A stretch of DNA of 64,000 nt from Escherichia coli (GCF_003019035.1 NZ_CP027447.1); one strand, 5' to 3'; numbered from the stretch's first letter, positions 44,801 through 49,530 are shown. Notes: generated by a model not told the origin, from the sequence alone. Numbers and translations are program-made.

Positions 44801-44921
44801 ATTTCAGACCATTAAGAAAATTTTATCCAAAGCCAGTCCAGCGGACTGGCTTTTGCGGTTTTAGCGAATAATAAATTGCGTTACTTTGTCATTCTTTCAC
44901 AACAAAAACAGGAAGGCAGAG

Positions 44922-45995
44922 GTGGGGCAGCGAATACCTGTAACGCTTGGTAATATTGCGCCGTTGTCGCTAAGGCCGTTCCAGCCTGGACGGATTGCTC
45001 TGGTGTGCGAAGGCGGCGGACAGCGTGGAATTTTCACGGCTGGCGTGCTGGATGAGTTTATGCGTGCGCAGTTTAATCCTTTCGATCTTTATCTCGGCAC
45101 ATCTGCCGGGGCGCAGAACCTCTCGGCGTATATCTGCAATCAGCCCGGTTACGCGCGCAAAGTCATCATGCGTTACACAACAAAACGCGAATTTTTCGAT
45201 CCATTGCGCTTTGTCCGTGGAGGAAATCTTATCGATCTCGACTGGCTGGTGGAGGCCACCGCAAGCCAGATGCCATTGCAAATGGATACCGCAGCGCGGT
45301 TATTTGACAGCGGCAAATCGTTTTATATGTGCGCCTGTCGTCAGGATGACTATGCGCCGAATTACTTTTTGCCAACTAAACAAAACTGGCTGGATGTGAT
45401 TCGCGCCTCCAGTGCGATACCTGGCTTTTATCGTAGCGGAGTGTCGCTGGAAGGTATTAACTACCTGGATGGTGGGATCAGTGATGCGATCCCGGTTAAA
45501 GAGGCGGCAAGGCAGGGAGCAAAAACGTTGGTCGTCATACGCACTGTGCCGTCACAAATGTACTACACGCCACAGTGGTTCAAACGCATGGAACGCTGGC
45601 TGGGTGACAGTAGCCTGCAGCCGCTGGTCAATCTGGTGCAGCATCATGAAACCAGCTATCGTGAGATTCAGCAATTTATTGAGAAACCACCGGGCCAGCT
45701 GCGGATATTCGAAATTTATCCGCCGAAGCCATTGCATAGTATTGCGCTCGGCAGTCGGATTCCGGCGCTGCGTGAAGACTATAAACTTGGGCGTTTATGT
45801 GGGCGTTATTTTCTGGCAACGGTCGGTAAATTATTGACTGAAAAAGCGCCGCTGAGCCGCCATCTGGTGCCGGTGGTGACGCCGGAGTCGATCGTTATTC
45901 CGCCTGCGCCAGTCGCCAACGATACGCTGGTTGCCGAAGTGAGCGACGCTCCGCAGGCGAACGACCCGACATTTAACAATGAGGATCTGGCTTGA
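44922..45995 (+). CDS. yjjU: Patatin-like phospholipase YjjU
   Basis: 357 aa from GTG at 44922; patatin motifs GGGQRG and GTSAGA. Confidence 0.8.
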   Translation: MGQRIPVTLGNIAPLSLRPFQPGRIALVCEGGGQRGIFTAGVLDEFMRAQFNPFDLYLGTSAGAQNLSAYICNQPGYARKVIMRYTTKREFFDPLRFVRGGNLIDLDWLVEATASQMPLQMDTAARLFDSGKSFYMCACRQDDYAPNYFLPTKQNWLDVIRASSAIPGFYRSGVSLEGINYLDGGISDAIPVKEAARQGAKTLVVIRTVPSQMYYTPQWFKRMERWLGDSSLQPLVNLVQHHETSYREIQQFIEKPPGQLRIFEIYPPKPLHSIALGSRIPALREDYKLGRLCGRYFLATVGKLLTEKAPLSRHLVPVVTPESIVIPPAPVANDTLVAEVSDAPQANDPTFNNEDLA

Positions 45996-46771
45996 TTTGC
46001 CGTTTTATCGACACCCACTGCCATTTTGATTTCCCGCCGTTTAGTGGCGATGAAGAGGCCAGCCTGCAACGTGCGGCACAAGCGGGCGTAGGCAAGATCA
46101 TTGTTCCGGCGACAGAAGCGGAAAATTTTGCCCGCGTGCAGGCGTTAGCGGAAAAATATCAACCGCTGTATGCCGCATTGGGCTTGCATCCTGGTATGTT
46201 GGAAAAACATAGCGATGTGTCTCTTGATCAGCTACAGCAGGCGCTGGAAAGGCATCCGGCGAAGGTGGTGGCGGTGGGGGAGATCGGTCTGGATCTCTTT
46301 GGCGACGATCCGCAATTTGAGAGGCAGCAGTGGTTACTCGACGAACAACTGAAACTGGCGAAACGCTACGATCTGCCGGTGATCCTGCATTCACGGCGCA
46401 CGCACGACAAACTGGCGATGCATCTTAAACGCCACGATTTATCGCGTGCTGGTGTTGTCCACGGATTTTCTGGCAGCCAGCAACAGGCTGAACGGTTTGT
46501 ACAGCTGGGCTACAAAATCGGCGTAGGCGGTACTATCACCTATCCACGCGCCAGTAAAACCCGCGATGTCATCGCAAAACTGCCGCTGGCATCGTTGTTG
46601 CTGGAAACCGACGCACCAGATATGCCGCTCAATGGTTTTCAGGGGCAGCCTAACCGCCCGGAACAGGCCGCGCGGGTGTTTGCTGTGCTTTGTGAGTTAC
46701 GCCTGGAACCCGCAGATGAAATTGCCGAAGTGTTGCTTAATAACACGTATACGTTGTTTAACGTGCCGTAG
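45992..46771 (+). CDS. yjjV: TatD-family metal-dependent hydrolase/DNase YjjV
   Basis: 259 aa; FIDTHCHFDF motif; TTG start overlapping yjjU stop. Confidence 0.8.
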   Translation: MICRFIDTHCHFDFPPFSGDEEASLQRAAQAGVGKIIVPATEAENFARVQALAEKYQPLYAALGLHPGMLEKHSDVSLDQLQQALERHPAKVVAVGEIGLDLFGDDPQFERQQWLLDEQLKLAKRYDLPVILHSRRTHDKLAMHLKRHDLSRAGVVHGFSGSQQQAERFVQLGYKIGVGGTITYPRASKTRDVIAKLPLASLLLETDAPDMPLNGFQGQPNRPEQAARVFAVLCELRLEPADEIAEVLLNNTYTLFNVP

Positions 46772-46895
46772 GCCGGATAAGGCGTTCACGCCGCATCCGG
46801 CAGTTGGCGCACAATGCCTGATGCGACGCTTGACGCGTCTTATCATGCCTACAAGTTTATGCCGATCCGTAGGCCGTATCCGGCATGTCACAAAT
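46772..46895. repeat. BIME/REP cluster between convergent yjjV and yjjW
   Basis: ggccggataaggcgttcacgccgcatccgg, gcctgatgcgacgcttgacgcgtcttatcatgcctac, gtaggccgtatccggc. Confidence 0.5.
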
Positions 46896-47751
46896 ACAGC
46901 GCCGGAAATATCAACCGGCTCACCCCGCGCTCCTGTAACGCATCAGCCAACGGCTCAACGTCTTCCGGCGTGGCGCTCGGCCAGCTTTGCGCCTCGCCAT
47001 ACACGCCGTGGGCATGAAACGCGTTCAGGCGTACCGGAACATCGCCAAGTCCCTTGATTAACGCCGCCAGTTCTTCGATGTGTTGCAAATAATCCACCTG
47101 GCCAGGGATTACCAGCAAACGCAGTTCCGCCAGCTTACCGCGCTCTGCCAGCAAACAGATGCTGCGCTTGATCTGCTGATTATCGCGTCCGGTTAATTGC
47201 TGATGACATTCGCTCCCCCACGCTTTGAGATCGAGCATTGCGCCGTCGCACACCGGAAGCAATTTTTCCCAGCCGGTTTCGCTCAACATGCCATTACTGT
47301 CCACCAGACAGGTGAGGTGGCGCAGTTGCGGATCATTTTTGATAGCAGTAAACAGCGCCACCACAAACGGCAGCTGGGTCGTGGCTTCGCCGCCGCTTAC
47401 CGTTATCCCTTCGATAAACAGCACCGCTTTGCGGATATGGCTAAGCACCTCATCCACGCTCATGGATTGCGCCATTGGTGTGGCATGTTGCGGACACATC
47501 TTCAGGCAGGTATCGCACTGCTCGCAGACTACAGCGTTCCACGCCACTTTGCCGTCAACAATCTGCAACGCCTGATGCGGACACTGTGGCACGCACTCCC
47601 CGCAATCATTGCAACGTCCCATCGTCCACGGATTGTGACAGTTTTTGCAGCGCAGATTGCAGCCCTGCAAAAACAGAGCCAGACGACTGCCTGGCCCGTC
47701 AACGCAGGAGAAGGGGATAATCTTACTGACTAAAGCGCATCTGCTGTTCAT
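46888..47751 (-). CDS. yjjW: Glycyl-radical enzyme activating protein (radical SAM) YjjW
   Basis: 287 aa; CxxxCxxC radical-SAM cluster ([10 protein letters not shown]) plus ferredoxin-like Cys motifs. Confidence 0.85.
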
Positions 47752-49273
47752 GGCTTATCACGCGCGGCTGGCGTTCCAGAATACGAGTGTTGCGTGCGGC
47801 CTCTTCGCCCAGCCAGGTGGTGTTGGTACGTGAGCCTTCGGCACGATATTTTTCCAGATCCGACAAACGCACCATATAACCAGTAACGCGAACCAGATCG
47901 TTACCGCTGACATTGGCGGTAAATTCACGCATTCCGGCTTTAAAGGCACCGAGGCAAAGCTGTACCAGCGCCTGCGGATTACGTTTGATGGTTTCGTCGA
48001 GTGTCAGAATGTCGCTGATGCCGGAATAATAATAAGCATGATGCGGGGCGACAGTTTGCAGATGGGTGATCGGATCTGGCTCATCGCCATACGGCAAACG
48101 TGCGCCCGGCGTGGTGCCGATATCGGAACTTATCCCCGACTGTGCGTGTAACATGGCGCGTTTTTGCCAGCCATATTTCACGGGGGTATTGGCGACAAAC
48201 TCCGCCAGTTGCGCGCTGATGCGATAACCCACTTCATTTGCGGCGGCTTCTTTACCGTAGCGCGCGGCAATCCCTTCTTTCTCACACAGCAAGTTAACCG
48301 CTTCCGCCAGCCCATACATGCCAAACATTGGCACAAAACGTTCAGGGTTAATCAGCCCTTCTTTCACCAGGAAGCTATTCTCAAAGAAGTGTGATTGTTG
48401 ATAGAGGAATTCACACCGCGCATCGATGATGGCGATCTGCTGCTGGCAGTAGTGCGGTAGAGTGCGCGTAAAGAAGTCCTCCAGCGATTCACTGCGCTCG
48501 GCAATGGCTTTCAGGTTTAGGCGTACCAGCGTGCTGCCACCACCCGCCAGCGGCAGTGAGTTGTAACAGCTCACAATCCCGTAGCCCCCTTTTGTGAAAA
48601 TTTTATCATGCACCGGACCGTTGGCGATGTGCGGTTTGCTACATTCACAGATGTTCTTCGCCACTTCCAGCAGCAGGTCATCAGGGGTGATTTCAGGATC
48701 GTAGATAAAGGTCAGATTCGGTGAAACCTGCTTCAACTCTGCGTCTGCACGTAAGATTGCGCGGGTAATGGGCGAATCAGACGGGCCGATATTGGCGTGC
48801 ATAAAGGCATCTGGCAGGGTTCTGTCGAGGTAACGCCAGAAACGTTTTATTCGAATATCGATCTCGTCTTGTGTTAGAATTCTAACATACGGTTGCAACA
48901 ACGCATCCAGTTGCCCCAGGTAGACCGGCATCGATGTGACCGACGGTACGTGGTGGTAAAGAATGGTCAGCAGAGAGAGTGCGTCATCAAGATCTTTCGC
49001 GCCTTCCAGCTCCAGCCATTCGGAACCGTTCGCCAGAAAACGGGCGTAATCGGGTAAGACATAGCGCGGTTTGTACGGCGCATGACCTTCAAACATATCG
49101 CAGATTACACCCTCATCCAGCGCGCGGCGGGCTTCGGCAGGCAACGCGGGGTAAGGCAGATTGTTTTCTGCTTCCAGTGCCAGAAAATGGCGCTTCTGCT
49201 CCGGGCTAAGCACTGGGCTGGTGACAATTTGCAGGCAACGTTGTTGCAGTGCATTTTCATGAGAAGTGGGCAT
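47723..49273 (-). CDS. yjjI: DUF3029 putative glycine-radical enzyme YjjI
   Basis: 516 aa; overlaps the yjjW start, consistent with co-translation with its activase. Confidence 0.85.
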
Positions 49274-49530
49274 CTTCTTTTCCTTTTATGCCGAAGGTGA
49301 TGCGCCATTGTAAGAAGTTTCGTGATGTTCACTTTGATCCTGATGCGTTTGCCACCACTGACGCATTCATTTGAAAGTGAATTATTTGAACCAGATCGCA
49401 TTACAGTGATGCAAACTTGTAAGTAGATTTCCTTAATTGTGATGTATATCGAAGTGTGTTGCGGAGTAGATGTTAGAATACTAACAAACTCGCAAGGTGA
49501 ATTTTATTGGCGACAAGCCAGGAGAATGAA

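Follow-up and report, generated by a model that had tools for sequence, protein, structure and literature searches.

The Escherichia coli genes yjjI and yjjW, which lie next to each other in the 64,000-nucleotide (nt) stretch of DNA analyzed here (GCF_003019035.1, NZ_CP027447.1; 'the window' denotes this whole stretch), encode a predicted glycyl-radical enzyme and its predicted radical S-adenosylmethionine (SAM) activase, and we describe their catalytic motifs, predicted fold and genomic neighbors, among which genes for nucleoside uptake and cleavage recur. Both open reading frames (ORFs) are on the minus strand: yjjI spans positions 47723–49273 (516 amino acids (aa)) and yjjW positions 46888–47751 (287 aa). 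The 3′ end of yjjI and the 5′ end of yjjW have 29 nt in common (47723–47751, minus strand), read in different frames, and the yjjW ATG lies 29 nt ahead of the yjjI stop codon, so that translation of the two genes is probably coupled through the overlap. Across 33 divergent lineages, the YjjI and activase genes overlap or are separated by at most 8 nt in 23.

Identity and conservation of the gene pair

YjjI matches the Pfam family PF11230 ('Glycyl radical enzyme YjjI-like', formerly DUF3029; E = 3.8e-220, 732 bits against a cut-off of 23) and the NCBIfam model TIGR04040 (787 bits, cut-off 498), while YjjW matches TIGR04041 (399 bits, cut-off 250), PF04055 and Fer4 families. A preliminary description of the locus had proposed a 516-aa DUF3029 glycine-radical protein overlapping the start of its activase, and both ORFs were recovered exactly where it had placed them. 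It had also called the substrate undefined, which still holds: no publication that names a substrate for YjjI came up in full-text literature searches, and NCBIfam release 20 (June 2026) gives both TIGR04040 and TIGR04041 the type 'hypoth_equivalog'. The orphan status of the pair was known before, and YjjI is absent from the E. coli glycyl-radical enzymes listed in a 2025 preprint.

Both genes are real and maintained, not chance ORFs, and are under strong purifying selection. A 2.8-kilobase (kb) region (46700–49520) is 100% identical to several complete E. coli genomes, in which the genes are annotated yjjV, yjjW and yjjI, and is found at ≥80% coverage in 5,422 of 5,426 complete E. coli genomes. 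Comparison with Salmonella enterica arizonae gives ratios of nonsynonymous to synonymous substitution rates (dN/dS) of 0.04 (yjjI) and 0.08 (yjjW); gene lengths and overlap are unchanged. Within the glycyl-radical superfamily, YjjI forms a small branch of its own. When 1.84 billion representative proteins were scanned exhaustively with HMMER, only 540 clusters came up at E ≤ 0.001, many of them fragments. Its members are found in Pseudomonadota, Bacillota, Fusobacteriota and Chloroflexota, and yjjI is a core gene in E. coli. One protein (P0004; 574 aa, on a 2.9-kb contig) matches YjjI at 100% identity across 91% of the query and additionally carries a DeoC domain (PF01791); this fusion is probably a mis-assembly or gene-call artifact, because yjjI and deoC are divergent.

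Catalytic motifs of YjjI and YjjW

An alignment of 23 YjjI homologs, reaching down to 29% identity (A1), contains 15 invariant positions, including Arg462, Gly465 and Cys236. Other conserved residues of YjjI, any of which may line the substrate pocket, are Arg70, Tyr71, Asp75, His159, Asn186, Lys213, Asn238, Arg251, Glu305, His376, Gln378 and Arg392. The C-terminal glycyl-radical motif, which the preliminary description had left for an alignment to confirm, is present as RVTGY at residues 462–466 (47876–47890, minus strand), where Arg462 and the radical glycine, Gly465, are the invariant residues; every one of the 36 full-length lineage representatives has the pattern R[VI][TS]G[YF]. The loop VSCYN contains Cys236, which is the only invariant cysteine in A1 and in alignment A2 and is the putative thiyl-radical site. 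The SCYN residues (codons 235–238; 48560–48571, minus strand) are kept in all 38 lineages of the neighborhood census described below, with Tyr237 and Asn238 conserved in at least 90% of the A1 sequences. When compared with solved structures, the YjjI profile aligns with pyruvate formate-lyase (PFL; E = 0.0013–0.0017), placing RVTGY on the PFL motif RVSGY (Gly734) and the cysteine loop on YAIACCVSPM, with Cys236 at PFL Cys419 and Ser235 at PFL Cys418.

YjjW carries the CX3CX2C motif expected to hold the radical-SAM [4Fe-4S] cluster (CNLRCKNC, residues 31–38; 47638–47661, minus strand), a motif shared by all 33 activase homologs. Two ferredoxin-type CX2CX2CX3C motifs, predicted to bind auxiliary clusters, follow at residues 47–57 and 76–86 (codons 47–86; 47494–47613, minus strand), and Pfam Fer4_9 and Fer4_7 cover residues 46–90. 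The extra ferredoxin-like cysteine clusters singled out in the preliminary description are thus there, but they are usual for activases of glycyl-radical enzymes other than PFL and are no peculiarity of YjjW. Both motifs occur in 23 of the 33 homologs, and the remaining 10 are short forms with neither, which argues that the auxiliary clusters are dispensable in this activase family. The short forms measure 229–347 aa, most of them <265 aa, and include the activases of lineages L087–L089, L103, L108 and L117.

After its own family, YjjW best matches the activases of enzymes such as hydroxyproline dehydratase, sulfopropanediol dehydratase and CutC rather than NrdG. It has the two ferredoxin-type motifs of the PFLE_PFLC activases (TIGR02494) but scores below the cut-off of their model (E = 8.9e-39, 133.5 bits, cut-off 174.35), and it also scores below those of the NrdG models (E = 4.5e-12 and 7.7e-18); YjjW would accordingly represent a sister family of the TIGR02494 activases and not a member of that family. 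In 33 of 38 lineages a radical-SAM activase adjoins YjjI, and the two usually overlap. Together, yjjI and yjjW almost certainly encode a working glycyl-radical enzyme and its activase.

Predicted fold of YjjI

An AlphaFold2 model of YjjI, based on 51 sequences, reached a mean predicted local distance difference test score (pLDDT) of 92.4 and a predicted template modeling score (pTM) of 0.91. It contains a ten-stranded α/β barrel, and its best structural matches are all to NrdD, the class III ribonucleotide reductase. Plain sequence searches of the PDB with YjjI or a clostridial homolog returned nothing significant, and many clostridial members of the family carry a precomputed Pfam NRDD hit. 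Alignment of the YjjI family profile to E. coli NrdD with hhalign paired YjjI residues 16–439 with NrdD residues 120–624 (407 columns, E = 4e-5, probability 69%); it was made to a single NrdD sequence and shifts the cysteine loops by ~9 residues, so that it serves here to place Cys175 and the domain boundaries alone, by which YjjI would be essentially a bare catalytic barrel. A protein-database search with E. coli NrdD gave only relatives at least 86% identical, too close for a deep NrdD profile.

Three features of NrdD were looked for in YjjI. No second conserved cysteine was found in the YjjI family alignments, and in the hhalign comparison NrdD Cys175 (T4 Cys79) falls in a gap within the conserved YjjI motif PRYxLPDY. 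E. coli YjjI has no C-terminal Cys4 zinc site ahead of the glycine loop: Cys440 stands alone in the last 180 residues and is not conserved. Lastly, E. coli YjjI matched neither the ATP cone (PF03477) nor the NRDD Pfam domain, PF11230 being its only Pfam match, while the NrdD relatives matched PF03477, PF01228 and PF13597. The model shows YjjI as a predicted minimal glycyl-radical enzyme of ~500 aa, with a barrel closest to class III ribonucleotide reductase and a single catalytic cysteine.

Nucleoside genes recur beside YjjI

Two distant homologs, ~35% identical to E. coli YjjI, were first found among nucleoside genes. For a wider census, 80 metagenomic loci were fetched with an alignment of non-enterobacterial YjjI members, combined with loci from exact look-ups and reduced to 38 lineages at <70% YjjI identity. 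ORFs within 7 kb were clustered by all-against-all BLAST with no prior labels, and the most recurrent neighbor clusters were annotated with Pfam; a long-flank set comprised the 29 lineages that had ≥6 kb of flanking sequence.

After the activase (33 of 38 lineages), the most recurrent neighbors were double ATP-binding cassette (ABC) ATPases (10/38), BPD_transp_2 permeases (9/38), Bmp/PnrA-like binding proteins (7/38), inosine-uridine nucleoside hydrolases (IU; 5/38) and PNP_UDP_1 nucleoside phosphorylases (PNP; 4/38), with RuvA and RuvB, from one clade, also in 4/38. Two of the ABC ATPase hits (L127 and L135) were of other transporter types. Characterized members of the Bmp/PnrA family bind nucleosides. 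That nucleoside-uptake and nucleoside-cleavage genes rank right after the activase in the YjjI neighborhood is new here.

Nucleoside genes lie near YjjI in 11 of the 29 long-flank lineages, co-directional with it and in an order that varies by lineage, and the YjjI proteins of these loci share only 33–66% identity. One operon (L165) reads PNP–Bmp–YjjI–YjjW–ABC–permease–permease–DeoC–adenosine deaminase (Add)–phosphopentomutase (DeoB), in which deoC, add and deoB echo the adjacency of yjjI to deoCABD in E. coli. Elsewhere the order is YjjI–YjjW–Bmp–ABC–permease–permease–x–PNP (L113 and L161), Bmp–ABC–permease–permease–YjjI–YjjW (L103) or Bmp–esterase–Bmp–YjjI–YjjW (L132). The pair is flanked in L108 by two nucleoside hydrolases and a LacI regulator, and in L082 by an upstream hydrolase, an ADP-ribosylglycohydrolase-like protein, a PfkB kinase and a PNP, with Bmp–ABC downstream. 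The presence of Bmp in 7 of 29 lineages would have a probability of ~1e-6 if ~2% of random genes had a Bmp gene within 7 kb, a value estimated from typical copy numbers.

Other genes were also seen beside the pair. An HhH-GPD glycosylase occurs in three lineages (L103, 2618–3265; L117, 7363–8004; and L151), once overlapping the start of YjjI, an AlkD-like DNA_alkylation protein occurs once (L108, 10730–11398) and RuvA–RuvB occur in L097, L131, L138 and L146. These recurrent DNA-repair neighbors may reflect clade synteny or hint at a link to damaged or modified nucleosides. ADP-ribosylglycohydrolase-family genes stand beside nucleoside hydrolases in two unrelated YjjI loci (L082, 1187–2206; L091, 7449–7895, and L092), together with the PfkB kinase in L082, an arrangement that we take to resemble the uncharacterized yegTUV cluster of E. 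coli.

The deo locus and anaerobic regulation

In E. coli, yjjI and deoCABD are neighbors transcribed away from each other. This synteny was followed in 80 loci, all from Enterobacterales, among at least 593 matching loci from a profile search of genome contigs with a diverse alignment. Within them the adjacency is kept through Enterobacteriaceae, Hafnia (where the yjjV–yjjU flank is gone) and Edwardsiella, and is lost in Proteus and Providencia, with the serB–radA–nadR side staying in Proteus.

Two palindromic DeoR operators frame the start of yjjI at a distance of 599 base pairs (bp): O1 (TGTTAGAATTCTAACA, 48872–48887) lies inside yjjI codons 129–134 (V-R-I-L-T-Q) and O2 (TGTTAGAATACTAACA, 49471–49486) lies at deoP2 in the yjjI–deoC intergenic region. 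We take O1 to be located at the deoP1 promoter, which would put the yjjI promoter between two deo promoters and make deoP1 transcripts run antisense across the yjjI promoter and its first ~128 codons. A CRP site (TGTGATGTATATCGAA) lies at 49438–49453 (PMC4287617), and chromatin immunoprecipitation sequencing (ChIP-seq) of CRP in enterotoxigenic E. coli (ETEC) placed a peak within yjjI and another in the spacer between yjjI and deoC (PMC4287617).

A putative yjjI promoter at 49307–49347 (minus strand) consists of an FNR-like half-site (CGCATCAGGATCAA, 49334–49347) and a −10-like TACAAT (49307–49312), with the half-site centered ~41 bp upstream of the implied start, the position of class II FNR sites; the proposal is based on a half-site with three mismatches plus its spacing. 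A search with the FNR consensus at ≤2 mismatches matched only the known CRP site of deoP2, and a generic sigma-70 scan gave nothing upstream of yjjI. We infer that 49307–49347 is the yjjI promoter, consistent with a published FNR peak, which by coordinate conversion would lie near 49366.

That peak was reported together with FNR-dependent anaerobic activation of yjjI in E. coli (PMC3688515), and in Yersinia intermedia both genes are induced anaerobically, with a 4.3-fold induction recorded (PMC3792023). HU regulon data group yjjI with FNR-activated and nrf genes (PMC2634741), and a multi-species bicluster places it with nar genes and FNR- and NarL-like motifs, with a guess of 'nitrogen metabolism' (PMC3228777). 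Crp/Fnr-type regulators also adjoin the pair in Haliovirga abyssi (L178, 8227–8898) and in a metagenomic operon (L161, 15674–16420), both with a cyclic nucleotide monophosphate (cNMP)-binding domain and the latter with a helix-turn-helix (HTH), which suggests that anaerobic control is a family-wide theme.

On its other side, the pair is flanked by yjjU (patatin-like, 369-aa ORF) and yjjV (TatD-type metal-dependent hydrolase, 259 aa), at 44886–46771, whose ORFs overlap by 4 nt and which are preceded by osmY and ytjA. The convergent yjjV–yjjW gap (46772–46887) holds a GC-rich palindromic repeat (GCCGGATGCGGCGTGAACGCCTTATCCGGCCTAC), presumably a repetitive extragenic palindromic (REP) or bacterial interspersed mosaic element (BIME), on account of which a BLAST query hit each E. 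coli genome at a median of 34 places.

Proposed function and alternatives

The best explanation of these data, to which we give about an even chance, is that yjjI–yjjW is a functional two-gene operon, expressed anaerobically, that acts on a nucleoside or its ribose; a role in nucleoside or pentose metabolism, put more broadly, is likewise evenly balanced in our judgment. By the chemistry of the family, YjjW would cleave SAM at its CX3CX2C [4Fe-4S] cluster and the 5′-deoxyadenosyl radical so formed would remove a hydrogen from YjjI Gly465; the glycyl radical, stored on the enzyme, would then oxidize Cys236 to a thiyl radical, which would abstract a hydrogen from the substrate. Gene neighborhoods suggest that this substrate is most likely an imported nucleoside, or a ribosyl or pentose-phosphate part released from one.

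The reaction is speculative and would most likely be redox-neutral: abstraction of the 3′-hydrogen with loss of the 2′-hydroxyl, as in the first half-reaction of ribonucleotide reductase, or another radical elimination. Reduction is less likely, since the family has no second conserved cysteine and NrdD Cys175 falls in a gap. A tentative and more specific proposal, which we think has less than an even chance, is that YjjI derives from a ribonucleotide reductase and acts on imported nucleosides or ribose(-phosphate) in an undescribed anaerobic step (2′-dehydration, or C–O or C–N cleavage) that would pass ribosyl carbon to the deo pathway. Dehydration-type chemistry on a ribosyl substrate in particular, which draws on the fold, the single cysteine and the neighborhoods, is more doubtful still.

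Several points weigh against a nucleoside-related function. The proposed tie of YjjI to a nucleoside comes from gene neighborhoods, and the random-gene background of nucleoside genes was itself an estimate. No nucleoside genes are nearby in 18 of the 29 long-flank lineages, and the pair has no informative neighbors in Clostridium ganghwense, Tepidibacter hydrothermalis, Haliovirga abyssi and a Chloroflexota bacterium and is likewise isolated on two contigs from gammaproteobacteria; this pattern could be explained if the substrate also occurred as a common metabolite inside the cell, and it equally weakens the association. Adjacency to deo within Enterobacterales may be inherited synteny. Finally, a product such as a 3′-keto-2′-deoxy sugar would be reactive, and the analysis identified no enzyme dedicated to handling it downstream.

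The alternative that survives best, possible but in our view less probable than a nucleoside-related function, is that the nucleoside neighborhood is coincidental and that YjjI acts on an unrelated small molecule (a diol, sugar derivative or keto acid), as other orphan glycyl-radical enzymes do. The pair is indeed an isolated two-gene unit in most lineages, other neighbors recur (RuvAB in four lineages, HhH-GPD in three), and PDB titles record PflD and YbiW structures with anhydrohexitol-6-phosphates bound. Coincidence sits poorly, however, with the finding that the five commonest families after the activase all serve nucleoside uptake or cleavage, in varied gene orders and beside YjjI proteins only 33–66% identical, and with the low probability of the Bmp count at the estimated 2% random rate.

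It is improbable that YjjI is a cryptic class III ribonucleotide or ribonucleoside reductase making deoxyribose compounds, either for salvage or to feed DeoC. The NrdD structural matches, the NrdD profile alignment (E = 4e-5), the NRDD hits on many clostridial members and the nucleoside operons linked to YjjI, one with both deoC and deoB, would all agree with such an enzyme, but YjjI has neither an equivalent of Cys175 nor another conserved second cysteine, no Cys4 zinc site and no ATP cone, and YjjW is far nearer to PflC-type activases (E = 8.9e-39) than to NrdG (E = 4.5e-12). E. coli nrdD mutants, moreover, fail to grow strictly anaerobically although yjjI is present.

Co-expression with narG in E. 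coli and Salmonella had led to the proposal that YjjI serves the metabolism of nitrate, nitrite or nitrogen, which is very improbable and was rejected: the nar-gene bicluster with its FNR- and NarL-like motifs (PMC3228777) and the nrf grouping in the HU regulon data (PMC2634741) can be put down to shared FNR control, no nitrogen-oxide metabolism gene recurs beside yjjI in the 38 lineages and no chemistry has been proposed. Least credible of all, and also rejected, is a pyruvate or 2-ketobutyrate formate-lyase paralog in line with an old 'PFL homolog' annotation, since, although the cysteine and glycine loops align best to PFL at the sequence level (E = 0.0013–0.0017) and the Haemophilus influenzae ortholog was historically annotated as formate acetyltransferase (PMC3228777), YjjI has Ser235-Cys236 in place of the required Cys418-Cys419, is ~240 residues shorter, ranks structurally with NrdD and falls below every curated PFL model, passing only TIGR04040.

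The preferred reading, a nucleoside or its ribose as substrate, turns an open-ended orphan into a short, testable substrate panel. E. coli K-12 has six glycyl-radical enzymes (PflB, TdcE, NrdD, PflD, YbiW and YjjI), and from the PDB titles naming anhydrohexitol-6-phosphates in PflD and YbiW we take YjjI to be the only one left without a substrate. If the reading is true, a ribonucleotide-reductase scaffold would have been reused for catabolism; if the more specific proposal of an undescribed anaerobic step is true, nucleoside catabolism would gain a new reaction class and E. coli would have no glycyl-radical enzyme left unassigned.

Comparison with known systems

The deoCABD genes and the Bmp/PnrA-type nucleoside ABC importers are physical partners of yjjI–yjjW, not homologs of YjjI, and the deo pathway has no known step that needs a radical enzyme. 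Compared with the class III ribonucleotide reductase NrdD, YjjI is ~200 residues shorter and has no ATP cone, Cys4 zinc site or second catalytic cysteine for reduction; its activase is likewise unlike NrdG, being PflC-like with ferredoxin-type motifs. The pair resembles PflB/TdcE and PflA in comprising a glycyl-radical enzyme with alignable cysteine and glycine loops and in its FNR-controlled anaerobic expression, but YjjI has one cysteine where PflB/TdcE have the Cys418-Cys419 pair and is ~240 residues shorter, and YjjW carries auxiliary-cluster motifs where PflA has none. A Cys-x-Glu motif on the cysteine loop, in which the glutamate is the general base, is defined from glycerol dehydratase (GDH), CutC and HypD. 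Glycerol and propanediol dehydratases, CutC, HypD, IslA, PflD and YbiW are enzymes of 760–870 residues with Cys-x-Glu, whereas the 516-residue YjjI has Cys236-Tyr237-Asn238 at this position.

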